Notes: generated from the sequence alone by a model not told the origin. A DNA stretch of 32,000 bases from Candidatus Scalindua sp. (GCA_031316235.1 JALDRA010000001.1:3450001-3482000); one strand, 5' to 3'; numbered from the stretch's first letter, positions 7,545-26,708 are shown. Made by a program: numbers and translations.

Positions 7545-8048
7545 CTACTTCCAATTGCCTTCAGCATCCCGTATTTTCTTACATGAGGGACAAATGGGAA
7601 GCAGGCCGGATAGGGTGGTTATCTTGGGCAGTGCGCCCTGGAGCTCTTCAATGAGTCTCCTTCGTTCTTTTTCTATCCGATGCTTATAAAGGGCAATTTC
7701 TATCGATATTTTTAAATCCTCATTTACGAAAGGCTTGACAATATATCCGAATGGTTCAGTTATGCTTGCCCGTTCCAGTGTATTCTCATCTGCATATGCG
7801 GTGAGATAGATAATGGGAATATTGTAACAAGCGCGGATTTGACGGGCAGCTTCTATTCCATCCATTTCACCCTTTAACACAATATCCATCAGCACTAGAT
7901 CGGGCCTACCCTTTTCAGCATTTTGAATTGCCTCTTCCCCTGATGAGGAGACAGAGGTTACCGTATAGCCTAAACTCTCCAGACTCATTTTAATATCTTC
8001 AGCAGTTATCCATTCATCTTCAACAATCATTATTTTAGCCTTTGCCAT
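7545..8048 (-). CDS. CheY-like response regulator receiver with a 40-aa C-terminal tail ending in a CxxCKKIRD motif
   Basis: Receiver motifs are present: IMIVEDE, DLVLMDIVL and YIVKPF. The tail RRRLIEELQGALPKITTLSGLLPICPSCKKIRDAEGNWK has no DNA-binding domain. It is a close paralog of 13176..13568. Confidence 0.9.
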   Translation of the reverse strand: MAKAKIMIVEDEWITAEDIKMSLESLGYTVTSVSSSGEEAIQNAEKGRPDLVLMDIVLKGEMDGIEAARQIRACYNIPIIYLTAYADENTLERASITEPFGYIVKPFVNEDLKISIEIALYKHRIEKERRRLIEELQGALPKITTLSGLLPICPSCKKIRDAEGNWK

Positions 8049-8193
8049 AGTTTGTTCCTTTCTTACAGAAATAGTTAATATGATGGACCTGTTATCTTAC
8101 CTCTGGTCAGCCATAAGGGGTAAACTTTCAATGAATTTTTTCCTGAGACCTGAGACGTCAGAGAACTCATGACCAGTGACGTATGGCTACTTA

Positions 8194-10014
8194 TCATATC
8201 CTCTCCTTGTATTTTACCTCCTGGAAATTGAGTCGAAATTCTGTCCCTCCATTTCTCTTGAGTCCCAGTTTACCCTGTAATTGATTCTCTGATAAATTGG
8301 TTATCAGCCTCAAACCGAGTGACTGGGTATTTCTGTAATCTAACTCTTCTGGAATTCCGATACCATTGTCACTGACTATGAGTTCAAACATCTCAGATTC
8401 TGAGTCCGCATTGGGCAATCGTTGATTTCCCGGCTGACTGGTATCAATTGGAATCTGACGCAGGGATATTTTTATTTCACCATCTTTTTTTCCCGGAAAG
8501 GCGTATTTCAGGGAGTTCGTTACCAGTTCATTGACAATCAATCCGCAGGGAATTGCTGTATCAATTCCAAAGGGAACCGTTTCAATATTCATCTTCAGTG
8601 CGACTTTGCCATCACTCACTTTATATGATAAAAACAGGTCATTTACAAGATTCTTAATGTAATCATTGAAATCAATATTTGCCAGATCTTTGGAACGGTA
8701 GAGTTTCTCGTGAATTAGAGCCATGGCCTTTATCCGGTTCTGGCTTTCTTTAAATATCTCAACATACTTCTCATCTTTGATATGGCTTGATTGAAGCCTG
8801 AGCAGACTTGAAATAACCTGCATATTATTCTTGACCCTGTGATAAATTTCCCGTGAAAGCATATCCTTTTCCCTTATGGATTCCCTGAGTTTGTTCATCA
8901 TTAAATTAAATGATTCAACCAGGTCTTTTATTTCATCACTCCTTTTTCCAATGGTTATCGGATGTTCCAGATCACCATCCGCCATCCTCTTGGTCCCCTC
9001 TATCAGTTTTTGTATAATCGCGTTTGTTTTGCCGGAAATAACAAACGCAAATATAAATACCAGAAATAATACTCCACCTCCGGAGAGCAAAAAAACATAT
9101 TTAATCCTCAGTAACGGCAGAAAGGCATCTTTAACATATTTTTCTGCCAGGATCACCCAGTTTGCTTCAGGTACAAACAGCGCTGTACCCAATACCCGAA
9201 TACCCTTATAATTTTCATAGATTCCGGATAATTCTCTCTTTGAGGTCAGCACTTCTTTCACCGCCTTTGTATCAACTATCTGATTAAAACCAGACCCCTC
9301 TAGAAAACGTGAATTTAATAACATCAACTTGTTACTGTTTACAATATAAATCTCACCGGAAGGATCAACAAAACTTTCTTTGTCAGAACGGTACATTGGT
9401 TCCTTGAGTATCCCTTCAAGAATATTGCCCTTTACCTTGGTAACGAGAACTCCCATGGGTCTGTGCAGATCTTTGTCTGCAAGGATTGCAGAAAAGACTA
9501 ACTGTAATTCCTCACCCTTTTCCGACCGTTCAAGGGCATCAGAAAAATAGGGCCCCTTACTTTCAAGAGAAAGGAATGGGTCCCTGAAGTAAACTTCACT
9601 CGATTTGTCTTTGCCTATCTGGTGGCGTGAAGATGAAGCGATGACCTCTCCTCCTTTGTTGAGAATTGATACCTCAATCAGGTCAGGATCCAGCCTTTTT
9701 TGTTTTTTTATGAGGTAGGTATTCAACCTTTCACTGATCTCAGAATAATCAGGAGTTTTTCGATTCATCTGTTCTACACAGTCACTGATAAATCCGTCTG
9801 AACTGAAATCGACAACCCTGATTCTTCTTTTCGACAGTAAGAGTTTCAGTTGTTCATTCAGACTGTGTGCCGTAGACCTTAGATGCCTTTGTACCTCTTC
9901 TCTTGTCCTGTCATGGACATATTTATACACTATGGTGCCTGCAATACCCAGGGGTACGATGGTTACCAATAAAAATAAAAGAAACAGTTTTACACCAAAT
10001 TTTGTAAGCTTCAT
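8194..10014 (-). CDS. sensor histidine kinase: TM, extracytoplasmic Cache-like region, TM, HAMP, HisKA_2-type DHp, HATPase
   Basis: It has an N-terminal TM (FLLFLLVTIVPLGIAG), a second TM (VFLLSGGGVLFLVFIFAFVI) and a HAMP region (GDLEHPITIGKRSDEI). The H-box EIYHRVKNNMQVISSLLRLQ is typical of HisKA_2/HWE-like kinases. The ATPase motifs are NELVTNSLKYAF and DNGIGIP. Confidence 0.9.
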   Translation of the reverse strand: MKLTKFGVKLFLLFLLVTIVPLGIAGTIVYKYVHDRTREEVQRHLRSTAHSLNEQLKLLLSKRRIRVVDFSSDGFISDCVEQMNRKTPDYSEISERLNTYLIKKQKRLDPDLIEVSILNKGGEVIASSSRHQIGKDKSSEVYFRDPFLSLESKGPYFSDALERSEKGEELQLVFSAILADKDLHRPMGVLVTKVKGNILEGILKEPMYRSDKESFVDPSGEIYIVNSNKLMLLNSRFLEGSGFNQIVDTKAVKEVLTSKRELSGIYENYKGIRVLGTALFVPEANWVILAEKYVKDAFLPLLRIKYVFLLSGGGVLFLVFIFAFVISGKTNAIIQKLIEGTKRMADGDLEHPITIGKRSDEIKDLVESFNLMMNKLRESIREKDMLSREIYHRVKNNMQVISSLLRLQSSHIKDEKYVEIFKESQNRIKAMALIHEKLYRSKDLANIDFNDYIKNLVNDLFLSYKVSDGKVALKMNIETVPFGIDTAIPCGLIVNELVTNSLKYAFPGKKDGEIKISLRQIPIDTSQPGNQRLPNADSESEMFELIVSDNGIGIPEELDYRNTQSLGLRLITNLSENQLQGKLGLKRNGGTEFRLNFQEVKYKERI

Positions 10015-10053
10015 TTTTTCACAATACTTCCATCCCCAGGGTATCGGTTCAGG

Positions 10054-10194
10054 TACACTGAAACTGCTTTGGTTTTAGATTTATCTAAAAACCAAAGCCT
10101 GATTAATGGTATCCCCGGACAAAAAACGCCGAGGACTTGTACTCGCTCCGTTTTTTCCCGGATTTTATCCGAAAACCTTTATAAGATGAGTATG
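10054..10194 (+). repeat. modular palindromic intergenic element, copy 4 (variant A + inserted module B + C)
   Basis: tacactgaaactgctttggttttagatttatctaaaaaccaaagcctgattaatgg + tatccccggacaaaaaacgccgaggactt + gtactcgctccgttttttcccggattttatccgaaaacctttataagatgagtatg. It sits inside the DUF3365-kinase operon gap. Confidence 0.85.
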
Positions 10195-10241: not shown

Positions 10242-10862
10242 TTAATCTTCAAGCGAAACAATAATACTTATCCCGCCACGAACATCACCCACGTTGTATC
10301 CATATGCATGGTCATATGGATATCTCTCTTCAAGAAATTTTCTTATTTCCGGTCGTGTCTTCTTCTTTGTACTATGACATTCTAAGCATGCCTTCTCAAC
10401 ATAAATAGGCTTCATGTATCTATATATTTTTCTTCCGCCTGTTACAAGGATCTCTCCAAATCCGGTGCCTTTCGGATAGTCTGATGCATCGAACAATTTC
10501 AATACCTGCTCTTCCCATTTATCCGGTGCGTTATCAGGGTTTCTGAGTTTAAGGCTGGTTTGCTTCAGTTTATGTCCGGTCCTCAGACTGAAATCATTAG
10601 CCACTTCTGAACCAACCATAGCCGGTATAAATCCTTTGAAGTAGTAGTTGCCGGATATCGGATCCATGTTGATAAGGTCCTGGTTCTTTGCTATAACGCT
10701 TCTCGTAGCAATCAGCATGTCAATTGTTGTATCGGCCAGCGTCTGCAGGCATTTCATGTGATTATTTTTTCGGTTTCCCGCATAATCAGATCTCGTATTG
10801 ATGCTGCAGAGTAAAATTACAAGAGCAAGTATTGAAAAGATTCTTTTGTTTATAGTGTACAT
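10242..10862 (-). CDS. secreted DUF3365 (Tll0287-like) c-type heme protein
   Basis: It has a single CLECH heme c motif (10374..10388) and the conserved GNYYFKG, LKQTSLK.RNP.N.PD.WE, MKPIYV and GDVRGGISI blocks. The signal-peptide-like MYTINKRIFSILALVILLCS favours a start at 10862; the ORF-track alternative is 10925. Confidence 0.85.
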   Translation of the reverse strand: MYTINKRIFSILALVILLCSINTRSDYAGNRKNNHMKCLQTLADTTIDMLIATRSVIAKNQDLINMDPISGNYYFKGFIPAMVGSEVANDFSLRTGHKLKQTSLKLRNPDNAPDKWEEQVLKLFDASDYPKGTGFGEILVTGGRKIYRYMKPIYVEKACLECHSTKKKTRPEIRKFLEERYPYDHAYGYNVGDVRGGISIIVSLED

Positions 10863-11313: not shown

Positions 11314-11396
11314 TATACGCATCTCATAATGGTTTTCGGATAAAATCCGGGAAAAAATTGAGCGAGTATAACTGCAACCAAATCGGTTTTAGTATA
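11314..11396 (-). repeat. modular palindromic intergenic element, copy 5 (inverted; module A hairpin deleted, C intact)
   Basis: The reverse complement reads tatactaaaaccgatttggttgcagt + tatactcgctcaattttttcccggattttatccgaaaaccattatgagatgcgtata. Confidence 0.85.
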
Positions 11397-11725: not shown

Positions 11726-13144
11726 ATGGTAAGGAAAATCATGTACACCATGAAGAGTAACGATTTTTGTCTCAAAGATGGCTCTCTAATTGCCATTATA
11801 GGAGGAGGACCTGCCGGAAGTTTCTTTGCTCATTTTGCATCGAGATATGCAGCAGAAATGGGTCTTGAGGTCTCTATAAGAATCTTTGACAAAAAGGATT
11901 TCTGCCAGAGTGGGCCGCGTGGATGTAATATGTGTGCGGGTGTGATCTCAGAGAACTTATGTAATAAACTGGAGGAGGAAGGAATAACTATTCCCCTGCT
12001 CTGTACCCAGAGAAGGATAGAAGGGTATTGTCTTCAGACTCAGGATGATAGTGTACTTCTTCATCACCCTGTTCCAGGACACGTGCCAGAAATTGTTACG
12101 GTATTTCGTGGAAATGGCCCATTATTACATGAACATGAAGGCAATGTCAGTTTTGATGATTTCCTGTTAAATCATGTAAAGAAAAGGGGTGTAGAAGTCA
12201 TCTCTGGAATTGTAAAAGGGCTTAAACGATCTTCCAGGAAAGGAGACCCGATAAAGTTGATTTTTGGTGAAGAGAAGTCAAAGAAAGAGATTCAAGCGGA
12301 TTTGGTGGTCGGAGCTTTCGGCGTAAATACCGGAATAATGGAAAGGCTTGCCAGTATGGATTTCGGATACACACCACCTAAGGTTGTACGAACGTGTCAG
12401 TGTGAAATAATGCTGGGTAAAGAATACATTGAAAAGACGTTTGGTAACAATGTATTTGTTTTTGAATTGGGAATGAAGGAACTCAAGTTTGCATCAATTA
12501 CTACGAAAAGAGACTATATAACTGTCAGCCTGGTTGGCAGAAAGGATTTGACCAGAAATAATCTCATAGACTTTTTTAATCATCCGGCAGTAAGAAAATT
12601 AATGCCGGATGGCTGGGAGATACCTGGTAATTTTTGTATGTGTTTATCAAAGATCCCCGTATCCCATGCAAATCATCCTTATACAGACAGAATCGTTATA
12701 GTAGGCGATGCCAGCATTTCGCGTGCTTATAAAAGCGGCATCGAATCGGCCTTTAATATGGCAAAGCTGTCTGCCTATACGGCTTTTAAGTACGGGGTAT
12801 CAGAAGGTGCATTTCTGAAAGGTTATTTTAAGCCGGCCAGGAAACTTCTGGCGCGTGATAATTTATATGGCATCGTGATGCTAAAAATCAACGATTACAT
12901 ATCATCACAGCGACACATAGCAAATTCTCATATCAATGTCATCAAATCAAACAAGGGCGCGAAAATTGCTGACGAAATTAACGAAATTTTATGGAACATG
13001 CTTACCGGAAATACAAGTTATAAAGAGATACTCTGTAAAGTCATACTTAATCCACGGCTTGTATTTACCATGTTGTCAATCAGTATGATTGCATGGGTAA
13101 GGCAAAAGATAGACGATTTCAATGCCTGGTGGGAAAACCATTGA
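11726..13144 (+). CDS. NAD(P)/FAD-dependent oxidoreductase (geranylgeranyl-reductase-like fold)
   Basis: It has the dinucleotide-binding motif IAIIGGGPAGSFFA, a GCNMCAGVI cysteine motif, a later VIVGDA motif and a hydrophobic C-terminal segment. The substrate cannot be inferred. The start may be one of the downstream ATGs (11747 or 11756). Confidence 0.7.
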   Translation: MVRKIMYTMKSNDFCLKDGSLIAIIGGGPAGSFFAHFASRYAAEMGLEVSIRIFDKKDFCQSGPRGCNMCAGVISENLCNKLEEEGITIPLLCTQRRIEGYCLQTQDDSVLLHHPVPGHVPEIVTVFRGNGPLLHEHEGNVSFDDFLLNHVKKRGVEVISGIVKGLKRSSRKGDPIKLIFGEEKSKKEIQADLVVGAFGVNTGIMERLASMDFGYTPPKVVRTCQCEIMLGKEYIEKTFGNNVFVFELGMKELKFASITTKRDYITVSLVGRKDLTRNNLIDFFNHPAVRKLMPDGWEIPGNFCMCLSKIPVSHANHPYTDRIVIVGDASISRAYKSGIESAFNMAKLSAYTAFKYGVSEGAFLKGYFKPARKLLARDNLYGIVMLKINDYISSQRHIANSHINVIKSNKGAKIADEINEILWNMLTGNTSYKEILCKVILNPRLVFTMLSISMIAWVRQKIDDFNAWWENH

Positions 13145-13175
13145 TATTGGATGAGTAAAAGATTTTGTATGAGAG

Positions 13176-13568
13176 TTACTCCTTCTCTTTTTCGGTTTTG
13201 TGCTTATAAAGGGCCAGCTCGATCGCTATCTTCAGATCTTCATTTAAGAAAGGTTTCACAATATATCCAGATGGCTCGGTTAACTTCGCCCTCTCGAGTA
13301 CCTCGTCATCGGCGTAAGCGGTGAGATAGATAATGGGAATGTGGAAACGGGAGCGGATCTGATTGGCAGTTTCTATCCCGTCCATTTCTCCCTGTAACAC
13401 AATATCCATCAGTACTAAATCAGGTTTGTCCTTTTCAGCGTTTTTAATTGCCGCATCCCCTGATGATGATATTGAGGTTACGGAATATCCTAAACTCTGC
13501 AGGCTCATTTTTATGTCTTCAGCGGTGATCCATTCATCTTCAACGATCATTATCTTTGCATTTACCAT
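13176..13568 (-). CDS. single-domain CheY-like response regulator (paralog of 7545..8048, no tail)
   Basis: It has the receiver motifs IMIVEDE, DLVLMDIVL and YIVKPF. Its start lies 4 nt downstream of the Amt-kinase stop, so the two are likely co-transcribed. Confidence 0.92.
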   Translation of the reverse strand: MVNAKIMIVEDEWITAEDIKMSLQSLGYSVTSISSSGDAAIKNAEKDKPDLVLMDIVLQGEMDGIETANQIRSRFHIPIIYLTAYADDEVLERAKLTEPSGYIVKPFLNEDLKIAIELALYKHKTEKEKE

Positions 13569-13572: not shown

Positions 13573-15582
13573 TTATATTCTCTGTTTGTATTTTGCTTCC
13601 TTGAATGTAATCTGAAATTTTGTTCCCTGCTTCCGATCTATCTCAATTTTACCCTGGAGTTGATTTTCCGCTAAATTGGTGATCAGCCGTAGACCGAGAG
13701 ATTGTGTGTTGCTGAGATCCAGTTCCTCTGATATACCAACACCGTTATCACTTACTATGAGCTCAAACATATCGGATGTTAAACCTGTAATTCTATGCAG
13801 GGATATTCTGATTTCACCGGCTTTTCCTTTTGGGAATGCGTATTTCAATGAATTGGATACCAATTCATTGATGATAAGTCCGCAGGGAATGGCGGTATCG
13901 ATCCCCAGTGAAATAGTATCAATATTCATCGTTAACTCAATATCTGAGGAACTGACTTTATAGGATAGAAACAGATCATTTACCAGATCTTTAATATAGT
14001 CGTTGAATTCAACATTAGCAAAGTCTTGAGACCGATAAAGTTTTTCGTGGATAAGAGCCATTACCTTTATACGGTTCTGGCTCTCTTTTGCCATCTCTAA
14101 AGTTTTCTCATCCGTTACGTTTCTGGTTTGAAGGCGGAGCAGGCTGGACATGACCTGCATGTTGTTCTTAACCCGATGGTGGATTTCTCTCAGAAGCAAT
14201 TCTTTCTCTTTGAGAGAATTTGCTGTTTTTGCGGCCTCTTTTTGCAGGGCATCCATGACCCAGTTATAACGTTCGGCAATCTGACCGATTTCCGTGAATG
14301 GTTCTACCGGTATACGGAGACTCATGTCTCCTGTCCTCACCTGGCTGTCCATAGTCCTGAACATATCCAGGAGTTCTGTAGTAGCTCCGTGTTCAGAGAC
14401 ATTAAGACCGATATATTCGTCCTCAGGGGTAACGCGAAGCGGAAAATAGCGGTTTATCATGAGAAGTAATGGAAATGATATGCCGAATGTCCATAAGGAA
14501 CATACACCTATACCGATGCATTGAGTTAAAAATTGATCTCCGCGGGGGAGTCCTGTGCCGAGGAGTTCTGTGCTGCCGAAGATGGCAGCTGCGAGTGTTC
14601 CCCAGACCCCTGCACCCAGGTGAACCTGAATCGCACCTACCGCATCATCAATCTGTAAATATTCCAGCAGATAATCAACCCCCAGCATGATCATACCGCC
14701 TATTCCTCCGATGGCTATGGCCGACAGGGTATTTACCACATGTACCGATGCAGTAATGGCTACCAGGCCCGCAACTGATCCAAATATTACCAGTTCTACA
14801 TCCGCCTGCTTCCGAAGTATCCATCCCGTTGTAAGTGTGACCATAGAACCGGAGGCGCCTGCCAGAAAGGTATTTGTAATAATGCCCGGGACCTGGTCGT
14901 TCAAAGCAAGTGTGCTGCCGCCGTTGAATCCAAACCAGCCCATCCAGAGGAGTAACACCCCGAGCACGGACAGGGGAAGATTGCTGCCATGAATCTTTCT
15001 GGGAGGGCCAACCGGAGGGAAACGGCCCTCACGAGGTCCGATAACCAATAGTGCTGCCAATGCAACCCATCCGCCGACACTGTGGACTACCGTTGCCCCG
15101 GCGAAGTCGACGAAACCTATCTGAGCAAGCCAGCCAGATACCATATTCCTTTGTTCACCATTCCAGGCCCAATGGCCAAAGATCGGGTATATGAGGCTTG
15201 AGAGGAGTATTGATATGATAATGTAGCTTCTGAATCGAAGGCGCTCAGCTGTGGACCCGGAGACTATTGTTACTGCTGTGGCACAGAACATGATCTGGAA
15301 CAGAAAAAAAGCGGTCGGCCAGGGACCTTTGTCAGTAGCCAGAAAAAAACCAGTTGTTCCTATCCAGCCGCTGCAGGTTACGCCGTACATAAGAGCGAAA
15401 CCAAAAGACCAGTATAAGATAGTAGAGATCCCAAAGTCGGTTATATTTTTTATGGCAACATTGATGCTGTTTTTTGACCGTGTCAATCCCGATTCAAGGC
15501 AGGTGAACCCCGCCTGCATGAGAAATACCAGACCGGCACAGATCGTGACCCAAAAGATATCTTCCAGCGATTTCTCTATCAT
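13573..15582 (-). CDS. ammonium transporter (Amt) domain fused to a HisKA_2-type histidine kinase
   Basis: The N-terminal ~400 aa carry Amt signatures (AGFTCLESGLTRSKN, FAGATVVHSVGGWVALAALLVIGPR, VHLGAGVWGTL). The C-terminal 204 aa (13576..14187) hold the H-box EIHHRVKNNMQVMSSLLRLQ plus an HATPase domain. Confidence 0.93.
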   Translation of the reverse strand: MIEKSLEDIFWVTICAGLVFLMQAGFTCLESGLTRSKNSINVAIKNITDFGISTILYWSFGFALMYGVTCSGWIGTTGFFLATDKGPWPTAFFLFQIMFCATAVTIVSGSTAERLRFRSYIIISILLSSLIYPIFGHWAWNGEQRNMVSGWLAQIGFVDFAGATVVHSVGGWVALAALLVIGPREGRFPPVGPPRKIHGSNLPLSVLGVLLLWMGWFGFNGGSTLALNDQVPGIITNTFLAGASGSMVTLTTGWILRKQADVELVIFGSVAGLVAITASVHVVNTLSAIAIGGIGGMIMLGVDYLLEYLQIDDAVGAIQVHLGAGVWGTLAAAIFGSTELLGTGLPRGDQFLTQCIGIGVCSLWTFGISFPLLLMINRYFPLRVTPEDEYIGLNVSEHGATTELLDMFRTMDSQVRTGDMSLRIPVEPFTEIGQIAERYNWVMDALQKEAAKTANSLKEKELLLREIHHRVKNNMQVMSSLLRLQTRNVTDEKTLEMAKESQNRIKVMALIHEKLYRSQDFANVEFNDYIKDLVNDLFLSYKVSSSDIELTMNIDTISLGIDTAIPCGLIINELVSNSLKYAFPKGKAGEIRISLHRITGLTSDMFELIVSDNGVGISEELDLSNTQSLGLRLITNLAENQLQGKIEIDRKQGTKFQITFKEAKYKQRI

Positions 15583-15767: not shown

Positions 15768-16433
15768 ATGAATTATCCAGGCGGCAAAGGAGGTGTATTC
15801 CAAAAGTTAATCAATCTTATGCCACCCCATGATGTCTACATAGAGACTCATTTGGGTGGTGGCGCTGTTATACGGAACAAACGACCTGCCAGGAGTAATT
15901 TTGGGATAGAAATTGACTCGGAAGTTGTTGAGATGTGGACAAATATGCATCCAATAGGTTTTGAACTGGTCCATGATGACGCAATTAATTATCTGAATAA
16001 TTATCATTTCACAGGAAAAGAACTGGTATATTGTGACCCACCATATCTTCGCGAGACAAGGAAAAAGTATGGACGGCTATATAAATATGACTATAGCCGT
16101 GCGCAGCACATCGAACTTTTGGAAGTTTTGAAAACTCTTCCCTGCATGGTGATGATATCCGGTTACGAGTCAACCTTATACAAAGAATCATTGCGTAGCT
16201 GGCAGACACATTCTTTTCAGGCCGTCTGTCATCATGGCGTAGCAACGGAGTGGTTATGGATGAACTATAGTGTTCCGGTAGGACTGCACGACTATCGTTA
16301 TCTTGGCAATAACTTTCGTGAGCGGGAACGGATAAAGAGGAAGACCAAAAGGTGGACAGCGAAACTTAAATCCATGCCTGTATTAGAACGTCAGGCGTTA
16401 CTATTCGCCATAGATGTATTCAGGGAGCGATAG
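15768..16433 (+). CDS. D12-class (Dam-family) N6-adenine DNA methyltransferase, orphan (no restriction partner seen)
   Basis: It has YPGGKG at the N-terminus, a HLGGGAV (FxGxG-like AdoMet) motif and the catalytic DPPY in VYCDPPYL. It lies inside the IS inverted repeats. Confidence 0.82.
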   Translation: MNYPGGKGGVFQKLINLMPPHDVYIETHLGGGAVIRNKRPARSNFGIEIDSEVVEMWTNMHPIGFELVHDDAINYLNNYHFTGKELVYCDPPYLRETRKKYGRLYKYDYSRAQHIELLEVLKTLPCMVMISGYESTLYKESLRSWQTHSFQAVCHHGVATEWLWMNYSVPVGLHDYRYLGNNFRERERIKRKTKRWTAKLKSMPVLERQALLFAIDVFRER

Positions 16434-16456
16434 AAGTCTTTTGAAAGGGGGTATTT

Positions 16457-18086: not shown

Positions 18087-19613
18087 ATGATTCTATTTCT
18101 AAGAAAAAAAATGAACTCTGACTTACATTTGATTTACGATTATGAAGAGGCGCTGGGAAATGTATGTAATGTCCTGTTTTCGTTTGATGTGAGTGGAAAT
18201 TTGCTATCCTGGCACGATTCCGCTGAAGAGTTGTTCGGGTATCTCAGAGAAAAGGTGGCAGGGAAAAACGTACAGACTCTTTGGCCTCAGAAAAAGCATC
18301 CGATTGCGGACAATATGGTAGATGTACTCCTTAACGGTGCAGCAACATATGAGTTTGTGAACGAGACACCAATCTCCGGAAAATCGGCATCTCAAACTAT
18401 TACCACAATTCCCATCAGAGACCAGAGCAGTAAGGTAATTGGTGCAACGTGCGTTTCTGCGTATATGACTCACAGCAAAAAGTTTCTGCAATCCGTTTTA
18501 GACGGAATTGAAGACTCCATAAAGATCGTTGACAGGGATTTTAATATAATTCTTTATAATGAAAAGGCTGCAAAAGAAAAAAATGGTACGGTAAAAACCT
18601 TAATAGGGAAAAAATGTTATAAAGAGTTCTGGAGTAATAATGAGCCCTGTTCTCACTGTGTTACACGGAGATGTTTTGAGACCAATAAACCTCAACAGAC
18701 GACGGATACGTACCTGTTAAAAGAGAAAAAAAAGTATATGGAATTTTTTAGTTTTCCCATTAAAAATGAATCTGGCAAGACTGTTTATGTTATTGAATTT
18801 GAAAGGGACATAACCGAAAGGGAGGAATTAGAACAAAAAAAGGAGAAACAGAGAGAAGAGCTTGGAAAAATTGTACGAGAGCTTCAACTTGCCTATAAAG
18901 AGATTCAGTCTATGCAGAATAAACTCCTCCATGCGGAAAAATTAGCATCGGTAGGTCAGATTACGTCATGTCTTGCCCATGAACTGGACAGTCCTTTAAC
19001 AACAATCTCCGGATACTGTGAACTGATTGAAGAAGATATACAGGACGAAAATACCCTTTCGAGGTTGGAAATTATTTCCAATCAGGTGACACGGTGTCAG
19101 AAAACCATCCGGGGAGTTCTGGATTATGCAAGAAAATCAAAAGATATAAAAACGTTTCAAGATATCAACACGTTAATAAAAAAGACAATTTCTCTTATGG
19201 GATACGTTCTCAAGGTGAACAGAATCCGTGTTGTTCTGGATCTGGACGATAATCTGCCGCGAGTGCATGTGCAGGAAAACCAAATGCAGCAGGTTTTCTT
19301 CAACCTGCTGAGGAATGCGATAGACTCGATGCCAGATGGAGGAGAGATTGCAATATCAAGTTTTAAAAAGGATGGTAAAAACCTGCAACTTACCGTTAAG
19401 GATACAGGTCATGGAGTGTCAGAGGCTGAGCAGAAGAGCATTTTTGAACCCTTCTTTACGACCAAGGACCCGGGGAAGGGGACAGGCCTCGGGTTGAGTA
19501 TCTGTACTGACATAGTCAGAAGCCATGGAGGAAATATTACTGTGGAAAGCAGAAAAGGTGAAGGTGCAAGTTTCATCATAATTTTACCGGTAAACAATGA
19601 GAAGATTGCATGA
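18087..19613 (+). CDS. cytoplasmic dual-PAS sensor histidine kinase (NtrB-like, classical HisKA)
   Basis: It has two PAS-like regions; the second carries C177-x10-C188-x2-C191-x4-C196. The H-box is SCLAHELDSPLTTISGY. The ATPase motifs are NLLRNAIDS, DTGHGV and GKGTGLGLS. No TM segment is present. The start could be 18087 or 18111. Confidence 0.88.
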   Translation: MILFLRKKMNSDLHLIYDYEEALGNVCNVLFSFDVSGNLLSWHDSAEELFGYLREKVAGKNVQTLWPQKKHPIADNMVDVLLNGAATYEFVNETPISGKSASQTITTIPIRDQSSKVIGATCVSAYMTHSKKFLQSVLDGIEDSIKIVDRDFNIILYNEKAAKEKNGTVKTLIGKKCYKEFWSNNEPCSHCVTRRCFETNKPQQTTDTYLLKEKKKYMEFFSFPIKNESGKTVYVIEFERDITEREELEQKKEKQREELGKIVRELQLAYKEIQSMQNKLLHAEKLASVGQITSCLAHELDSPLTTISGYCELIEEDIQDENTLSRLEIISNQVTRCQKTIRGVLDYARKSKDIKTFQDINTLIKKTISLMGYVLKVNRIRVVLDLDDNLPRVHVQENQMQQVFFNLLRNAIDSMPDGGEIAISSFKKDGKNLQLTVKDTGHGVSEAEQKSIFEPFFTTKDPGKGTGLGLSICTDIVRSHGGNITVESRKGEGASFIIILPVNNEKIA

Positions 19614-20986
19614 AGGCTAAAAAGAAAATTCTTGTGGTTGACGACGATGTGGCGCTGTCTGATATGTGCAAAGAGCTTTTGAATAACCGAGGTTATGATG
19701 TGGAAGCTGTTTATAGCGGTGAAGACGCCTTGAAAAAAGTGAAAGAAGATAATTACTCGATTGTGATTACTGATCTCATGATGCCTGGTATTGATGGCAT
19801 AGAGCTGATGAAAAATATTAAACTCCTGAATGATCGAATTGACGTTATCGTAATGACAAGCTATGCAACAGTCAGTAATGCCGTGAAAGCCATGAAATTA
19901 GGGGCTTCCGATTATATTACGAAGCCTTTTAAACGTGACGAACTGACTTTGATTATTGATAAGATCTTTCAGATGCAGTCCCTGGAAAAAGAGGTGCACC
20001 GATTGCGTTCTGAACTGGATACACAGTATAAGTTTGGAAATATCATTGGGAAAAGTGCAAAAATGAGAAAGGTATATGCCCTCATAAACAGTATCAGTGA
20101 TACGGAGGCCAATGTACTCATTCAGGGTGAGACAGGCACGGGAAAAGAGTTGGTAGCCAAGGCGATACATTATAACAGCATGCGGAAGGATGGTCCTTTT
20201 GTTAAGGTAGATTGTGCGTCTCTCACTGAAACACTGCTTGAAAGTGAACTTTTCGGTCATGAAAAGGGCGCTTTTACGGGTGCAACAAAAGACAGAGTTG
20301 GAAGGTTTCGGATGGCTGATAAAGGAACAATCTTCCTGGACGAGGTAAGCAATATTCCCTTTCAGACTCAGGCAAAGCTGCTCCGTACATTGCAGGATTA
20401 TGAATTTGAAGCAGTAGGAAGTGATAAGACATCAAAGGTAGACGTACGCATAATAGCTGCATCAAATTGCGATTTGGAGTCGTGCATACAGAAGGGGACA
20501 TTCAGAAATGACCTTTTTTATCGACTGAAAGTTGTGACCCTTAATCTCCCCCCGCTCCGCGAAAGATTAGATGATATATCACTTCTCTCCGACCACTTTA
20601 TCGTGAAATATTGTAAAAAGAATAATCGTGATATTAAGGGTATGTCACGATCAGCATTACAGAAATTAATGTCTTATCACTGGCCGGGTAATGTGAGGGA
20701 GTTGGAGAATCTGATCGAAAATGCGGTTGTTCTCTGTAGTTCAGATATCATCCAGGATGATGATATTCAACTACCAGATGAAAGATCTCTCCTGCCTGTT
20801 GATACAAAAGGAAAATCATTTCGTGAAATGATTGATGTCGCAGAACGAAGGATCATAAATGATGTATTGAATAAGGTTAACTGGGACAAGGATAAAGCTG
20901 CCCGAGTATTAAAGATCTCACGGGCGAGTCTATACAATAAGATAAAAAAGCATAATATCCATGTGGTGTTTGATAAGAGCGAGTAA
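19610..20986 (+). CDS. sigma-54-dependent response regulator (NtrC family: receiver + AAA+ + Fis-type HTH)
   Basis: It has a receiver (ILVVDDD, VITDLMMPG), Walker A GETGTGKE, the GAFTGA loop (EKGAFTGA), FLDE, and a C-terminal HTH (ARVLKISRASLYNKIKK). An ATGA start/stop overlap links it to the upstream kinase. Confidence 0.93.
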   Translation: MKAKKKILVVDDDVALSDMCKELLNNRGYDVEAVYSGEDALKKVKEDNYSIVITDLMMPGIDGIELMKNIKLLNDRIDVIVMTSYATVSNAVKAMKLGASDYITKPFKRDELTLIIDKIFQMQSLEKEVHRLRSELDTQYKFGNIIGKSAKMRKVYALINSISDTEANVLIQGETGTGKELVAKAIHYNSMRKDGPFVKVDCASLTETLLESELFGHEKGAFTGATKDRVGRFRMADKGTIFLDEVSNIPFQTQAKLLRTLQDYEFEAVGSDKTSKVDVRIIAASNCDLESCIQKGTFRNDLFYRLKVVTLNLPPLRERLDDISLLSDHFIVKYCKKNNRDIKGMSRSALQKLMSYHWPGNVRELENLIENAVVLCSSDIIQDDDIQLPDERSLLPVDTKGKSFREMIDVAERRIINDVLNKVNWDKDKAARVLKISRASLYNKIKKHNIHVVFDKSE

Positions 20987-20987
20987 T

Positions 20988-21099
20988 TATACTCATCTCA
21001 TAATGGTTTTCGGATAAAATCCGAGATAGAATGGAGCGAGTATACCTTCACCAGGATTTGGTTTTCAGAAAAACCGAAAACCAAATCGGTTTTAGTATA
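20988..21099 (-). repeat. modular palindromic intergenic element, copy 6 (inverted, canonical A+C)
   Basis: Its reverse complement is near-identical to copy 1. It starts 2 nt after the activator stop codon. Confidence 0.92.
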
Positions 21100-21244
21100 G
21101 TGTGTGAACGAAAACCCTGTGTGTGAACGAAAACTGTCCAGGTACAAGGAGCGCAATAAGTACGTAACCGGAGCGTACTCAAGTACGTGAGGATTACGTA
21201 CTTATTGCGGCAACACCGTAGATGGGTAGTTTTCGTTCACACAC
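21100..21244. repeat. 145-bp nested palindrome with 16/17-nt terminal repeats (GTGTGTGAACGAAAAC x2 direct, x1 inverted)
   Basis: The 16-mer occurs at 21100..21115 and 21119..21134. A 17-nt perfect inverted partner pairs 21119..21135 with 21228..21244. An inner 16-bp perfect stem pairs 21152..21167 with 21194..21209. The innermost pairing is cgtact/agtacg. Confidence 0.8.
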
Positions 21245-21804: not shown

Positions 21805-23022
21805 CTATTGCGTGTTCTGCCCGGATCTCAATTTTGCATAAAGCTTTTGAAGGGCATCCGCAAATTCAATCCCAAATTCCTCACATTTACTCAGGATCGT
21901 TTTATCTGCAGTCAGCTTTATCTTTAATGAAGGCTTATGCAGCCTGATATGGAGACCGCTTAACCTGTCCTCCATCATTCTGGTGGCCTCCCCGCTCCAG
22001 CCAAACGATCCAAATGCAGAACCCAGGAGTATCATTGATTGTACTGAAGAGATGAGGGAAAGTGCATCCCACACCGGTTTCGGAACATCTCCGGCAATGG
22101 TGGGAGATCCAATGAGGATGCCATCTGCCTTCTCAAGATCATCTCTTATCTTTTGGAAATTGGTCTCCATAATGTCAACTAATGTAACATCAGCGTCTCT
22201 TCCTGATGCTCCTTTTGCAATAGCATCTGCCATTTTCTCTGTGTTGCCATAAATAGTGGTGTATAAGATGAGAATGTTCTTTCTTTCCCTTAAACCTGTT
22301 TCACTCCATTTTCGCCAGTTTTCGATATACTTTTTTGGGGTTTTTCGCAGAACGGGGCCGTGACCTGTTGCAATAATCTCAATTTTTAAATCTTTAATCT
22401 TGTCAACAGCCTTCAGGACATAAGATTTATAGGGACGCATTATACAATCAAAGTAATAGTGTTGATAAGAGTCAAAATTTGACATGAGGTCGTCGAATAT
22501 TCTTTCATCGCAATAATGAGAGCTGAAGACATCACAGCTGAAAAGTATCTTTTCCTGTTCCAGGTAGGTGAAAATAGTATCCGGCCAGTGTAAATATGGG
22601 GCAGGAATAAACTGTAAATCATTTGTGCCGATAGTGAGCCGGGGGCAATCCTCAATCGTTATTACATCAACTGGTATCGTGAGCAGGCTTTTCAGCAGAT
22701 GACCTCCCGATTTTGATGCAATGATCTTTGCGTTTTTCGCATATTTTAAGAGCTCTTGCAGTGATCCGGAATGGTCTGGCTCGGTATGACTCACAATAAT
22801 ATAATCAATAGTTTGAGGATCGGTAAGATCGTTTATCTTAGAGAGGAACTCATCGGTAAATTTACCTTTGACGGTATCGATCAAAACAGTTTTTTCATCT
22901 TTGATAAGATATGAGTTGTAGGTTGTTCCATGATCAGTTTCGAAAACTATATCAAAGATCCTCATATCAGGTTCCAATGCCCCGACCCAGTATATATTGT
23001 CTTTTAAATTAATAGAGGCCAT
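21805..23022 (-). CDS. fprA: flavodiiron protein (metallo-beta-lactamase-like diiron domain + flavodoxin domain; O2/NO reductase)
   Basis: It has the SHTEPDHSGS di-iron ligand motif, ATGHGPV, and a C-terminal flavodoxin-like ILILYTTIYGNTEKMA...IGSPT. The 405-aa length is typical of class A FDPs. Confidence 0.88.
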   Translation of the reverse strand: MASINLKDNIYWVGALEPDMRIFDIVFETDHGTTYNSYLIKDEKTVLIDTVKGKFTDEFLSKINDLTDPQTIDYIIVSHTEPDHSGSLQELLKYAKNAKIIASKSGGHLLKSLLTIPVDVITIEDCPRLTIGTNDLQFIPAPYLHWPDTIFTYLEQEKILFSCDVFSSHYCDERIFDDLMSNFDSYQHYYFDCIMRPYKSYVLKAVDKIKDLKIEIIATGHGPVLRKTPKKYIENWRKWSETGLRERKNILILYTTIYGNTEKMADAIAKGASGRDADVTLVDIMETNFQKIRDDLEKADGILIGSPTIAGDVPKPVWDALSLISSVQSMILLGSAFGSFGWSGEATRMMEDRLSGLHIRLHKPSLKIKLTADKTILSKCEEFGIEFADALQKLYAKLRSGQNTQ

Positions 23023-23555: not shown

Positions 23556-23927
23556 TCAGGGCGATAACTTTTTGTCTACTTCATCGAGTAATTTTTCCTT
23601 GGTGAGATACGGCTTTTCAATGTAGACAACATTTGGATCTAACTTTTTTAGGTTTTTATACTGTTTTTGTGAGCAGGCACTGATTATTATTACGGGAATA
23701 TCTTCGTATTCCGGCATGCCTTTGAGGTGTAAGAAAAACGTGTCTCCTGTTACCATATCCATAAGCATGTCCAGCAGTATCAGATCAGGTTTCGTCTCTT
23801 CCAGCTTCATCATTGCTTCATCACCATCATAGGCAAAAATCAGATCGTAATCTCTCTCTTCAAATATTGCAGCATACAGTTCGTGAAAGGCTTGTTCATC
23901 CTCTACTATCAGTATTTTCTTCGCCAT
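23556..23927 (-). CDS. single-domain CheY-like response regulator
   Basis: It has ILIVEDE, DLILLDMLM and a YIEKP motif. It lies 64 nt downstream of the kinase 23992..25908. Confidence 0.9.
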   Translation of the reverse strand: MAKKILIVEDEQAFHELYAAIFEERDYDLIFAYDGDEAMMKLEETKPDLILLDMLMDMVTGDTFFLHLKGMPEYEDIPVIIISACSQKQYKNLKKLDPNVVYIEKPYLTKEKLLDEVDKKLSP

Positions 23928-23991: not shown

Positions 23992-25908
23992 CTACTGAGG
24001 ACTGCACATGCACTCATGGTAATCGTCAAGACTTGGTTTTGGGAGAGCAAATTTAAATGTTGTCCCTTTGCCCGTTCGACTGCTTTCGAACCAGATTCTG
24101 CCGCCATGTGCCTTAATAATTGTGTTACAGATTGCCAGCCCTAAACCAACGCCTTCACTTTTTATTTTTTTTTCCTGATAAAACCGATCAAATATCTTAC
24201 CCTGCAGGTGTTTTGGCAAACTTATGCCCACTCCGGTATCCTTGACTGATACTTCAATCTCATCATACCTGTTCTTTGCAGAGACGATAATAGTTCCAGC
24301 TTTTGTGTACTTGATAGCATTATCTATTAAATTAGAAACAACTCTCATGATCTTCATTCTATCTCCCAGAAATTCGGGCAAGTGATCAGCAATGTCTGTT
24401 TTTATTGACAAATCTTGATTCTCCGCTATCAATCTGAGACCTGCAGTTACCTGAAGTATTAATTCTCCGATATTAATAGGTTCTTTATCGTATTTTTCTG
24501 TACCGGATTCGAGATCCGCCAGAGTCAATACACTTTCTATCGTTTTATTCAGTCTTCCAATATTTACTTTTATGATACTGATAAAATGGTCATTCTTGTG
24601 GTTTGCTTTCCTTCGATCTGTTCCGTTATAGACCTGTCTATCCAACCATAATTCCAATGCAAGCCTCAGTTGAGACAACGGAGATTTCAGTTCATGTGAT
24701 ACATCCTTGATTATGTTATCCTTCAATCTGTCAAGACTTCTTAGTGCGGCATTACTCTCGTTTGAAATCCTGAGTTGTTTCACCATTGAGTTGAATTCCA
24801 CAACAACCTCTTGAATTTCATCATTCCTTTTACCAATTGTTATTGGTTGGGTTAAATTACCATGAGCCACTTTTTTGATACCTATCAGCAATTTTCTTAT
24901 GTCTGCACTCAAATGGCTGAAAATGACAGTGGTGCCTGAAAGTATTAAAAATACTACTACACTCCCTGCAATACCAAAAATATATTTTAATCTTGTCAGT
25001 GGTAAAAATGCCTCTTCAAGATTTTTCTCTGTTACAATAGTCCACTGTGTTTCCGGTACAAACAGGAGAGTTCCCAACACCGTAATACCATAGGGGTTTA
25101 CATAAGATCCAGAATAATTCTTCCCTAATCCTGACACTCTTCGTAGTGCTTCAGGATCGATTGATTTTCTGTGCGAACGATTATCGTTCGTTTTTAATTT
25201 CGCAATTATCGTTGATGCATTGGATAAAATATATACATTGCTGAAATGAGCGGAATGGTTTTCTTTTTGTTCATATTGAGTATAATGCCTCTGTGTATCA
25301 ATGATGTTCTCGAGAATAGTGCCTTTTACTTTCATGGCGATAATACCCAAAGGATTATGAACTATTCTGTCTGTTAACATTGAGGAAAATATGAGATCAG
25401 AGATGCTTTCAGTGCCCGACTCAGGCAGGGCATCTGCAAAGAAAAACCCCGATGTCTCCGCTGAAAGGTATGGGAAACGGAAGTAGTTTTTTTGTGATTC
25501 GTTGTTTCCGATCAGCTCTTGAGAAGTCGAGGCGATAATCTGACCGACAGGATCAAGAATTGAAATGCTGATAATATCAGGATCCAGGCTTAATTTATTT
25601 GTCAACAAGTGGTTGTTTAATGCTCTCCTGATCTCAGAGGTGTTCTCAGGCTGCGTTATCAACTGTCCGGTATAATCTCTGATTAAACCGTCAGAACTGA
25701 AATCTACAACCCTGCATCGCTTTTTCTGCAACAAGAGGTCCAGATGAGATTTAATAGTATTGGCAGTTGATTCTAATGCTCTGAACGCCTCATCTTTTGT
25801 CTGGTCATGGAGATATTTGTAAACTATTGTGCCGGTAATACTGATGGGAACTATTGAAACCAAGAGGAAATAACATAAAAGTTTTTTGCCTAATTTGGTC
25901 AGTTTCAT
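23992..25908 (-). CDS. sensor histidine kinase: TM, Cache-like region, TM, HAMP, classical HisKA, HATPase
   Basis: The N-terminal 370 aa are collinear with and similar to 8194..10014 (MKLTK.G.KL...FLLV.IVP..I.GTIVYKY.HD, RVVDFSSDG.I.D, LDPD, PITIGKR.DEI). It then switches to the H-box DVSHELKSPLSQL and the ATPase motifs NLIDNAIKYT, DTGVGI and GVGLGLAI. Confidence 0.9.
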   Translation of the reverse strand: MKLTKLGKKLLCYFLLVSIVPISITGTIVYKYLHDQTKDEAFRALESTANTIKSHLDLLLQKKRCRVVDFSSDGLIRDYTGQLITQPENTSEIRRALNNHLLTNKLSLDPDIISISILDPVGQIIASTSQELIGNNESQKNYFRFPYLSAETSGFFFADALPESGTESISDLIFSSMLTDRIVHNPLGIIAMKVKGTILENIIDTQRHYTQYEQKENHSAHFSNVYILSNASTIIAKLKTNDNRSHRKSIDPEALRRVSGLGKNYSGSYVNPYGITVLGTLLFVPETQWTIVTEKNLEEAFLPLTRLKYIFGIAGSVVVFLILSGTTVIFSHLSADIRKLLIGIKKVAHGNLTQPITIGKRNDEIQEVVVEFNSMVKQLRISNESNAALRSLDRLKDNIIKDVSHELKSPLSQLRLALELWLDRQVYNGTDRRKANHKNDHFISIIKVNIGRLNKTIESVLTLADLESGTEKYDKEPINIGELILQVTAGLRLIAENQDLSIKTDIADHLPEFLGDRMKIMRVVSNLIDNAIKYTKAGTIIVSAKNRYDEIEVSVKDTGVGISLPKHLQGKIFDRFYQEKKIKSEGVGLGLAICNTIIKAHGGRIWFESSRTGKGTTFKFALPKPSLDDYHECMCSPQ

Positions 25909-26024
25909 TTTTTTATTAACATCGAATCACGAAAAAACCCATATCACTCATGAAAGAGAGACCAAAGAAGCAAGCCTATTACGATCGACAGGAGATTGTG
26001 TTGAAGTGAACCATAATAATCACG

Positions 26025-26708
26025 TTAATGTTTTGTCATTTCTACTGGAATAGCAATACTTATCCCGCCGCGAATATCTCCCTCTTTATATCCATGTGCC
26101 AGGTCATGGGGATATTTTCTTGCCATAAACTGTCTGACTGCAGGTTTAAGTTTCTGTTTTTCACTATGGCATTCCAGACAGGTCTTATCAACATAAATAG
26201 GTTTCATGAATCTATATGTCTTCTGTCCATCTATCTCCACAATCTCTCCAAAGCTGACAGCTTTTGAACTTTCTGCTGCCTCAAATGATCTCAATACTTT
26301 CACTTCCCACTTATCGGGAGTATTAGATGGATTCCTGACCTTGAGGCTTGTCTGCTTCAGTTTCCACCCGGTCAGGAGAGTGAAGTCGTTTGCGATTTCT
26401 GATCCTACTACTGCGGGTACAAATCCTTTGAAATAATAATTTCCTGTTATCGGGTCTCTGTTTATAAGCTCCTGGTTCTTTGCAATTATGTTTCTTGTGA
26501 CCATCAACAGGTCTGTTATTATTCTTGCAAATTTCTGTAAGTTTTCCTTTTCAACAGTTCCAGGCTTATTAGATATATCGATGCGTGAACCATATACGAA
26601 CGCCTGTCTGTCATGCTCAGCGGCAAAACAGATACTATCTGTTGCACTATACGTAAGCAGGAGAGAAACTATTACAGCAAAATTGAAATTAAAAAGAGTA
26701 TAATGCAT
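26025..26708 (-). CDS. secreted DUF3365 (Tll0287-like) c-type heme protein, paralog of 10242..10862
   Basis: It has CLECH at 26166..26180, the same conserved blocks as the paralog, an N-terminal signal-like segment, and a gagggggg SD upstream of the ATG. Confidence 0.88.
   Translation of the reverse strand: MHYTLFNFNFAVIVSLLLTYSATDSICFAAEHDRQAFVYGSRIDISNKPGTVEKENLQKFARIITDLLMVTRNIIAKNQELINRDPITGNYYFKGFVPAVVGSEIANDFTLLTGWKLKQTSLKVRNPSNTPDKWEVKVLRSFEAAESSKAVSFGEIVEIDGQKTYRFMKPIYVDKTCLECHSEKQKLKPAVRQFMARKYPHDLAHGYKEGDIRGGISIAIPVEMTKH

Follow-up and report, generated by a model that had tools for sequence, protein, structure and literature searches.

Gene content of the three cassettes

The DNA considered here is a 32,000-nt stretch (the window) of the genome of Candidatus Scalindua, a marine anammox planctomycete (GCA_031316235.1, JALDRA010000001.1:3450001-3482000). 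Three two-component cassettes, termed A, B and C, lie between positions 7545 and 26,708, and the genome was sampled through this one window. An open reading frame (ORF) map places the eight genes of the cassettes on the minus strand, at the coordinates proposed in an earlier reading made from the DNA alone (the sequence-only reading), and Pfam upholds every domain call of that reading.

Cassette A begins with TllA (10242-10862/10925), a secreted c-type heme Cache protein of the Tll0287/DUF3365 family (Pfam Tll0287-like, E 2e-32). Its likely start is the ATG at 10862, which gives 206 aa; orthologs have this length too, and the choice is based on their alignment and on the signal peptide. The kinase HKA (8194-10014) matches dCache_1, HAMP, HisKA_2 (E 1.5e-30) and HATPase_c. 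Its layout is a transmembrane (TM) segment, dCache (aa 36-289), a second TM segment, HAMP (329-378), HisKA_2 (389-464, with His392) and HATPase_c (492-598). The receiver RRA (7545-8048), which is of the type called RR167 below, matches only Response_reg and has the receiver residues D11, D55, T83 and K105 followed by a conserved tail.

In cassette B, the kinase HKB (13573-15582) matches Ammonium_transp (E 7e-117), HisKA_2 (E 6e-29) and HATPase_c. The sequence-only reading described it as an Amt domain fused to a HisKA_2 core. Both domains stand, but the description omitted a putative degenerate HAMP: the protein consists of a sensor-type Amt domain (aa 11-401), the degenerate HAMP-like stretch (~414-447), HisKA_2 (466-541, with His469) and HATPase_c (569-663). 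The linker scores 17.6 bits against HAMP (PF00672, E 0.005), below the gathering threshold of 25 bits, and covers HAMP positions 19-52 only; the scores for HKA and HKC are 45.4 and 39.4 bits. The receiver RRB (13176-13568), which starts 4 nt past the HKB stop codon, is a tail-less single-domain protein of the RR130 type and matches only Response_reg.

Cassette C comprises TllC (26025-26708; Tll0287-like, E 3e-32), a second secreted c-heme Cache protein, the kinase HKC (23992-25908) and the receiver RRC (23556-23927). HKC matches dCache_1 (weakly), HAMP, HisKA (E 9e-11) and HATPase_c, in the order TM-dCache-TM-HAMP-HisKA(His405)-HATPase_c. RRC matches only Response_reg and is a single-domain receiver unrelated to RRA and RRB.

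HKA and HKB are predicted kinases of the HisKA_2 family (PF07568; 105.5 and 100.4 bits, cut-off 22.3), since both have the H-box and the ATP-binding domain of that family. The phospho-acceptors His392 and His469 lie within an EI[YH]HRVKNN H-box, and the HATPase_c matches are accompanied by an N-box NELV[TS]N and a G1 box DNG[IV]G. HKC scores 42.1 bits against HisKA (PF00512, cut-off 26.9) and 102.8 bits against HATPase_c, and its H-box, SHELKSP, contains His405. The three receivers score 61-80 bits against PF00072; their conserved residues are VEDEW, LMD55I, LTAY and KPF in RRA and RRB, and EDE, LLD, SAC and KPY in RRC.

Module similarity and the position of the breakpoint

By BLASTP, HKA and HKB are 59.8% identical over 271 aa (E 3e-103), rising to 71% over the gap-free dimerisation/histidine-phosphotransfer (DHp) and catalytic/ATP-binding (CA) domains, and RRA and RRB are 77.5% identical over 129 aa. 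TllA and TllC share 61% identity over 167 aa, the sensor halves of HKA and HKC 43% over 345 aa, and RRC is only 27-28% identical to RRA or RRB. The sequence-only reading had counted by hand roughly 33 mismatches in the first 130 core residues of A and B, and roughly 27 in 127 for the receivers; the recounts are 33 and 28. Its observation is thus confirmed, because Pfam domains, BLASTP identities and hand counts all reproduce. Its further claim, that the A and C sensors are homologous and then switch abruptly to different DHp families, also agrees with the data: identity between HKA and HKC in windows of 30 aa is 0.4-0.7 up to about residue 390 and 0.13-0.33 beyond.

The relationships of the sensor halves were examined in a tree of 70 sequences and 380 columns (200 bootstraps). 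Three clade labels of our own are used for the genomes compared: W (window-type Scalindua), M (marine Scalindua) and G (groundwater/freshwater Scalinduaceae). All sensors that carry HisKA_2 (22/22) fall in one clade with 100% bootstrap, nested within a Scalinduaceae family that is otherwise found on classical HisKA, in some cases accompanied by PAS or GAF inserts. At the base of this family, and furthest from the rest, stand HKC and its ortholog P0085; the other sensor paralogs are 54-64% identical to the HKA sensor, compared with 43% for HKC. Cassette C therefore appears as only a distant member of a large sensor family, closer members of which are found elsewhere.

The sequence-only reading placed the swap junction right after HAMP, and it can now be positioned to the residue. 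Around the junction HKA reads …ESFNLMMNKLRES|IREKDMLSREIYHRVKNN… (FNLMMNKLRES|IREKD). Three PAS-HisKA paralogs (P0023, P0024 and P0033) are identical to HKA through KLRES and unrelated beyond it, while the Amt kinases align with HKA from the first residues past KLRES. For this reason the chimera junction is mapped to HKA residue ~379 (nt ~8878-8880), immediately past HAMP helix 2; homologs of the Amt-HAMP module of HKB stop at the corresponding position. Counted from the HAMP [FY]N motif, the phospho-accepting histidine is 23 residues away in HKA and 30 in HKB, a gap of 7, or exactly one heptad. By parsimony, a single replacement of a HisKA by a HisKA_2 transmitter, before the split of the W and M clades, would account for the distribution. 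Domain shuffling at the HAMP/DHp joint is an ordinary and already established event in kinase evolution; what the locus offers is a clean case of transmitter replacement, with a residue-level breakpoint between the HAMP C-terminus and the DHp and with heptad register preserved.

Origin of the HisKA_2 core of cassette A

By sequence comparison, the A and B cores belong to one HisKA_2 subfamily that has expanded in the Scalinduaceae. In a neighbour-joining tree of 136 cores, the A-type cores (those under a Cache/HAMP sensor, as in HKA) are not resolved as monophyletic. Identity of the HKA core to G-clade Amt cores is 67-70%, to the HKB of its own genome 60-62%, and to M-clade A-type cores 58-62%. 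Since the G-clade cores have diverged least from every other group, unequal rates alone could explain their closeness to HKA. Descent of the A core from a single Amt-kinase clade was also considered; the tree gives only 31-44% support on this point, and the G-clade sequences are the slowest evolving. There is good reason, most of it in synteny, to suppose that the A core was derived from an Amt kinase.

The Amt-HAMP module behaves likewise and is found with many outputs. A full HMMER scan of 1.8 billion representatives recovered Amt-HAMP modules 50-65% identical to HKB residues ~3-455, and on ten homologs scanned with Pfam the outputs were HisKA_2, PAS-HisKA_2, PAS-HisKA, hybrid HisKA and SpoIIE. 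A metagenome scan with HKA returned 4 loci only. EL346 is a monomeric LOV-histidine kinase. Among solved structures it comes nearest to the A and B cores (PDB 4R39/4R3A, E 3e-13) and shares with them the HRVKNN H-box and the CA domain, but, unlike HKA and HKB, it is soluble and has a LOV input.

Receivers and locus organisation

A receiver scan with RRB, limited to one genome per species, gave 76 loci, for which ORF maps were drawn. Three receiver types occur: RR167, with a CxxC tail; RR195, with a full four-Cys tail (CxxC…CPxC); and the tail-less RR130/131. RR167 comprises ~98 database clusters, nearly all of 167 aa, with a few called at 161 or 174 aa. It stands directly behind the Amt kinase in 14/18 loci, both in the G clade (L004, L007-L009) and in the M clade (L010, L012, L014-L021), while in the W clade (window, L003, L069) it stands behind HKA.

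Among the genomes in which an A-type kinase adjoins the Amt kinase, the gene order varies. In the M-clade loci L010 and L012 it is RR195, Amt kinase, RR167, Tll, HKA, with no receiver past HKA. In L069 (SCAELEC01) it is Amt kinase, Tll, HKA, RR167, with no RRB, and in the window and L002/L003 it is Amt kinase, RRB, a variable spacer, Tll, HKA, RR167. Three genomes (L010, L012 and L069) thus have one RR167 for both kinases. The convergent neighbour of RR167 in the window is a gene for a 441-aa conserved protein without a Pfam match (5979-7304, plus strand); this protein is 75-90% identical across the Scalinduaceae and is nearly always convergent to RR167 (13 loci). Because this synteny anchor adjoins RR167 in these 13 loci, RRA is taken to occupy the ancestral RR167 slot.

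In the receiver tree, W-clade RR167 (behind HKA) and G-clade RR167 (behind the Amt kinase) group in 74% of 500 bootstraps. RRB groups with the RR130 of L002 at 59%, the placement of this pair being poorly supported (33-59%). Tree and synteny agree in making RRA orthologous to the receiver that comes right after the Amt kinase in most Scalinduaceae. In G-clade genomes, tblastn finds decayed Amt-kinase remnants just upstream of an orphan RR131 gene (L008 1-224 and L013 ~7900-7994); in the L008 remnant, an N-terminal Amt fragment is joined to C-terminal kinase fragments in different frames. These remnants beside RR131 point to a past tandem duplication of the Amt-kinase/receiver cassette, followed by repeated loss of copies.

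Recognition between kinases and receivers

Partner recognition was compared at specificity positions known from work on EnvZ and HK853, carried over by analogy from HisKA to HisKA_2 kinases. Between HKA and HKB of the window, the sole difference from H+1 to H+16 is I/M at H+9, and the differences cluster in the hairpin from H+17 to H+29. Helix α1 of RRA and RRB is identical save for E24Q. Among 24 A-type and 39 Amt-type cores, no position of DHp helix 1 is fixed and different between the groups, and over the whole DHp-CA there are 4 paralog-specific differences, all conservative (A/V, L/F, I/V, F/L). The comparison of DHp helix 1 and receiver helix α1 proposed in the sequence-only reading therefore finds them nearly identical in A and B, and there is little evidence of insulation between the two pathways.

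One position does vary between clades. H+14 is R/K in both W-clade kinases and in G-clade Amt kinases, and S in both M-clade kinases, and α1 of RR167 is changed in the same M clade. This covariation is only suggestive because it represents one event. One small receiver family is probably the target of both the ammonium kinase and the heme-associated kinase: convergence is the best reading because RRA is orthologous to the receiver of the Amt kinase, RR167 is shared in three genomes, and the recognition helices are near-identical. The proposal that the two kinases converge on near-identical receivers, made from the window, thereby gains comparative support.

Proposed ammonium and heme inputs

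The N1/N2 signature QX6EX15NX2D[F/T]X54-60TX2[S/T] has been proposed to mark ammonium receptors (PMC11152129). A regular-expression search matches it to HKB residues 23-108, and the Amt fold (11-401) is fused C-terminally to HisKA_2/HATPase_c; HKB is probably an ammonium receptor rather than a transporter. Its best PDB match is Sd-Amt1 of Shewanella denitrificans (8qj3, E 9e-133), compared with E 4e-90 for Ks-Amt5. The alignment of HKB with Sd-Amt1 spans the Amt domain and the HAMP linker and reaches HKB residue 457, and the two share the N1/N2 signature (PDB 8QJ3/8QJ4/8QPF; PMC11152129). The output of Sd-Amt1 is GGDEF (a diguanylate cyclase) and not a kinase (PMC11152129); the organism and the signalling currency differ as well. 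Ks-Amt5 (Kuenenia stuttgartiensis kust_3690, PDB 6EU6) resembles HKB in coming from an anammox bacterium, in being an Amt fused to a histidine kinase and in its N1/N2-type signature. Its kinase has been described as HisKA type, without HAMP and without a known receiver (PMC5764959), whereas HKB has a HisKA_2 core, a putative degenerate HAMP and a conserved adjacent receiver. HKB thus represents another way of fusing this class of sensor to a kinase.

TllA and TllC both have N-terminal export signals, a CLECH motif (at residue 180 in TllA and 177 in TllC) and high scores against Tll0287-like (PF11845; 113 and 112 bits, cut-off 24.1). This family was recently renamed sCache_heme (bioRxiv 10.64898/2026.02.01.703092). 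Its Cys/His members behave as redox proteins, while an NO-binding (nitric oxide-binding) member lacks the axial Cys (bioRxiv 10.64898/2026.02.01.703092). In an alignment to Tll0287 (PDB 5B82), the axial Cys68 is replaced by Pro in TllA, TllC and 4/4 orthologs, so the Cys/His axial ligation of the redox subtype, known from Tll0287 and a P. putida protein, is not present in TllA or TllC. They share the Pfam family, CXXCH and export signals with both Tll0287 and the NO-binding sensor of P. azotoformans, and the loss of the axial Cys with the NO class only. Unlike the NO-sensor subtype, which is fused to its signalling module, the Scalindua Tll proteins are stand-alone and are paired genetically with a separate dCache-HAMP kinase.

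A Tll gene lies directly upstream of the A-type kinase in 8/8 contexts (window, L003, L069, L010, L012, L085-L087), and also upstream of HKC and of the S. japonica paralog P0059. A Tll gene upstream of every sensor paralog was considered and rejected, as P0055 lacks one. LuxP-LuxQ and TorT-TorS are known cases in which a kinase relies on a second, periplasmic protein for sensing. The arrangement here is similar, with a secreted, putatively ligand-binding protein encoded beside a membrane kinase with a periplasmic PAS/Cache-like domain; it differs in that the putative partner is a heme-c Cache protein. The heme protein may sense NO or redox state and report to the dCache domain.

Several observations touch on these inputs. 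In Ca. Scalindua japonica (L078, 5341-6004), where a Tll0287-like gene precedes a paralogous Cache-HAMP-HisKA kinase, this gene is broken into two ORFs (145 and 74 aa); a frameshift, decay to a pseudogene or an error of assembly might account for the break. Genes of a nitrosative/oxidative-stress type lie around the cassettes. A flavodiiron-type protein (ODP/metallo-beta-lactamase plus flavodoxin by Pfam) is encoded at 21805-23022 on the minus strand, 533 nt downstream of RRC, and could be a target or context gene of cassette C. M-clade loci (L085 9354-14640; L010 1119-4826) contain genes for hybrid cluster protein, rubrerythrin and DUF2231, and L085 also has a Crp/Fnr regulator.

The tail of RR167

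The sequence-only reading found no recognisable output domain in either of the two similar receivers. For RRA this needs revision: a 40-residue C-terminal extension, consisting of an extended helix and a CxxC, is conserved in sequence and length across the Scalinduaceae. The tail (aa ~126-167, nt 7548-7673) begins with an extended α5 helix, followed by the LLPICPSCKKIRDAEGNWK knuckle. Its consensus, …LIEELQGALPKIT[TS]LSGLLP[IV]CPSCK[KR][IV]RD[AS][ED]G[NHD]WK, always stops at that point. In the AlphaFold2 model of RRA, α5 is prolonged as a long helix (residues 109-146), which leads into a small CxxC knuckle with pLDDT (predicted local distance difference test) values of 66-73. The model of RR195 has the same helix and then a compact four-Cys mini-domain with pLDDT 82-87.

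The four-Cys module has the consensus LLPICSYCKKIRDDxGYWxQxExYIxxHSxAxFSHGICPxC (for example at L010 5156-5743 and L073 8001-8633). It occurs in many phyla, at the ends of proteins source-named response regulators, HAMP sensors and RsbU-like phosphatases. Pfam has no model for the RRA tail or for the four-Cys module, and a full-text literature search found no mention of CKKIRD. A homology search with the tail only returned short unannotated fragments, source-named as parts of response regulators, HAMP sensors and RsbU-like proteins. The RR167 tail thus looks like a strictly conserved half-version of the four-Cys module, ending in GNWK, and is a candidate output for RRA. It is a matter of speculation that the tail binds metal bridged across a dimer. 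The idea that the neighbouring 115-nt repeat had truncated an original 4-Cys motif in RRA was discarded, given that ~98 clusters and 18 loci end identically, at …GNWK and a stop codon.

A proposed branched signalling node and its alternatives

Taken together, these data are best explained by three cassettes built from two lineage-expanded module families, through an old joining at the HAMP/DHp boundary, with both HisKA_2 kinases directed to the same receiver family; the probability of this reading is put at about 0.6. The first module would pair a membrane dCache-HAMP kinase with a secreted c-heme Cache protein whose gene lies just upstream; in the Scalinduaceae its sensor is normally combined with classical HisKA. 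The second would be a HisKA_2 transmitter with a small receiver, whose conserved home is the Amt-HAMP-HisKA_2 kinase, as in cassette B. Once, before the M/W split, the HisKA transmitter of a module-1 sensor would have been replaced by a HisKA_2 core, giving cassette A, and the new A-type kinase would have remained in or near the Amt-kinase locus. RRB would then be a diverged, tail-less paralog of RR167. In signalling terms, NH4+ would bind the N1/N2 site in the Amt domain of HKB, and TllA would use its heme to sense a signal, most likely NO or redox state, and pass it on to the HKA dCache domain. Both HisKA_2 transmitters would phosphorylate RR167 and RR130, forming a many-to-one branched node, and RR167 would act on a partner through its extended α5 helix and CxxC tail. 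The domains, the homologies, the age and site of the swap, the synteny and the conservation of the recognition helices are direct results; the partners in phosphotransfer, the ligand of the heme, a contact between Tll and Cache, and the output are inferences.

Several points weigh against this reading. All trees are neighbour-joining trees built on simple distances, and some metagenome-assembled genomes are possibly mis-binned. The A-type and Amt-kinase cores cluster at only 37% bootstrap, and other HisKA_2 kinases of Scalindua are almost as similar to the HKA core (P0095, for example, at 64%). The specificity positions were borrowed from HisKA kinases, and the covariation of H+14 with RR167 α1 is a single phylogenetic event. 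Each kinase in this genome has its own adjacent receiver, and the 28/127 differences between RRB and RRA, with the loss of the tail, would also fit specialisation after duplication. Stand-alone sCache_heme proteins have been assigned a redox rather than a sensory role (bioRxiv 10.64898/2026.02.01.703092), and the sensor paralog P0055 has no Tll gene upstream.

How the similarity arose leaves little room for two simpler histories. Recent shuffling or gene conversion within the genome is suggested by the arrangement, with the cassettes within 19 kb on the same strand and with repeats and a transposase-like gene nearby. Synonymous sites are nevertheless saturated for every paralog pair (receivers A/B, synonymous divergence dS 1.18 with a non-synonymous to synonymous ratio dN/dS of 0.10; cores A/B, proportion of synonymous differences pS 0.80; sensors A/C, dS 1.46). 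Among sites fixed within groups, 15 are paralog-specific and 0 are lineage-specific (concerted), which together with the saturation rules out recent conversion between A and B. The A-type architecture of Cache/HAMP on HisKA_2 is also found in many Scalindua relatives, species that are only 60-80% identical (sensors 59-82%, cores 58-82%), and both halves of the A-type kinases have diverged in step among them. Because dS is saturated, the architecture is genus-wide and concerted sites are absent, the swap is judged to be ancient, and recent shuffling is refuted. The phrase "shuffled parts" in the sequence-only reading is therefore right about the exchange, but the exchange was neither recent nor among these three cassettes. 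Plain whole-gene duplication and divergence, without any exchange of modules, has in its favour only that paralog expansion is generally frequent, and is as good as eliminated: HisKA and HisKA_2 are different Pfam families, the HisKA_2-bearing sensors are nested among HisKA-bearing ones with 100% support, and the breakpoint at residue 379 is sharp. The check by separate module trees that the sequence-only reading had proposed gives incongruent trees, as expected of domain replacement.

The branched part of the scheme has more serious competitors. The similarity may reflect common descent without integration, with HKA, HKB and HKC signalling in parallel to RRA, RRB and RRC. Each cassette in the window and in L002/L003 has its own receiver, the 4-nt gap between HKB and RRB suggests translational coupling, RRB has lost the tail and differs in the β4-α4 and α5 regions, and the residue at His-1 is consistently aromatic in A-type kinases and His in Amt kinases. 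Such insulation is hard to reconcile with one conservative difference across H+1 to H+16 and one difference in receiver α1, with genomes in which the two kinases have only one adjacent RR167 between them (L069 without RRB, L010 and L012 without a receiver past HKA), or with the orthology of RRA to the Amt-kinase neighbour of other lineages; on balance it is rather unlikely. The heme proteins, for their part, might be ordinary periplasmic redox or electron-transfer cytochromes beside kinases that sense a small-molecule ligand directly via dCache. Cytochromes are abundant in Scalindua genomes, redox behaviour has been reported for stand-alone sCache_heme proteins (bioRxiv 10.64898/2026.02.01.703092), and P0055 manages without a Tll neighbour. 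Yet the adjacency of Tll and kinase is kept across paralogs down to 43% identity (the 8 A-type contexts, C and P0059 of S. japonica), and TllA and TllC lack the axial Cys that defines redox-type proteins, which makes this explanation unlikely as well. A bolder extension of the branched node is doubtful at present: the Amt and heme-Cache kinases, with interchangeable HisKA_2 transmitters, might form a dedicated coincidence detector for the hydrazine synthase substrates NH4+ and NO via RR167, a receiver that would be peculiar to the Scalinduaceae, with the conserved half-zinc-knuckle CxxC tail as a third input (metal or redox), controlling anammox catabolism through a protein partner.

Much of this has precedents. 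Kinase domain shuffling, sensor Amt kinases (PMC5764959, PMC11152129) and many-to-one HisKA_2 signalling were already known, and nothing is overturned. In Alphaproteobacteria, several HWE/HisKA_2 kinases that differ in their sensors feed one small free-standing receiver, which integrates the signals (the MrrA hub, PMC5964349; Pak kinases with SdrG and PhyT, PMC5898713). Cassettes A and B resemble these hubs in architecture only, and convergence here is a probable reading. Unlike those hubs, the present cassettes belong to the phylum Planctomycetota, their inputs are Amt and heme/Cache, and the receiver has a CxxC tail; ORF and Pfam scans of the window revealed no PhyR/NepR/EcfG module. What is new is the pairing, on sister transmitters, of an ammonium-receptor kinase with one assisted by heme/Cache, together with an unannotated Cys tail and a receiver that is a candidate cognate partner of anammox Amt kinases. 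Neither of the two structural papers on sensor Amt proteins (PMC5764959, PMC11152129) settles which component the anammox ammonium-sensor kinases act on, and the length-invariant 167-aa receiver behind the Amt kinase can now be named as a candidate. If confirmed, the node would tie ammonium sensing to NO or redox sensing in anammox bacteria, organisms that are responsible for a large share of oceanic nitrogen loss and are not genetically manipulable.

Neighbouring genes and other observations

The variable spacer between cassettes B and A contains a FAD/NAD(P)-binding oxidoreductase-like gene (11726-13144, plus strand), convergent with RRB; the pair of RR130 and this gene is kept in L002 and L005. 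On the other side of cassette B lies a plus-strand mobile insertion, a D12-class methyltransferase fragment with a UPF0236 transposase-like ORF (15768-17875). It separates HKB from a divergent pair on the plus strand that encodes a PAS-HisKA kinase and a sigma54-activator response regulator of the NtrC type (18087-20986), a conserved divergent neighbour of the Amt kinase in related genomes. The insertion is absent in L002 and L069, where the PAS-HisKA/NtrC-type operon abuts the Amt kinase. Scans of the window for promoters and terminators gave matches no commoner than in shuffled sequence, and an Rfam scan found no family.

An intergenic repeat of ~115-145 nt is present in at least 9 copies in the 32 kb, at 987-1105, 4468-4587, 7410-7530, 10054-10193, 11314-11390(-), 20985-21101(-), 27211-27344, 29201-29319 and 30309-30449. 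Among the sites occupied are the gap separating TllA from HKA, the stretch just past the stop codon of RRA and the region upstream of TllC. The repeat consists of two conserved hairpin-forming halves, separated in some copies by an insert of ~30 nt; its RNA fold has an energy of -34 kcal/mol (z = -4.6 against shuffles), and it has no Rfam match. It looks like a REP-like (repetitive extragenic palindrome) or MITE-like (miniature inverted-repeat transposable element) element of Scalindua.

Apart from the cassettes, the window encodes at 3065-4348 a 427-aa protein of repeated GxDGxxY/W-F-G-S motifs (beta-propeller-like) with an N-terminal hydrophobic segment. The gene is located inside a run of histidine-biosynthesis genes, between hisB-like and hisA-like genes.

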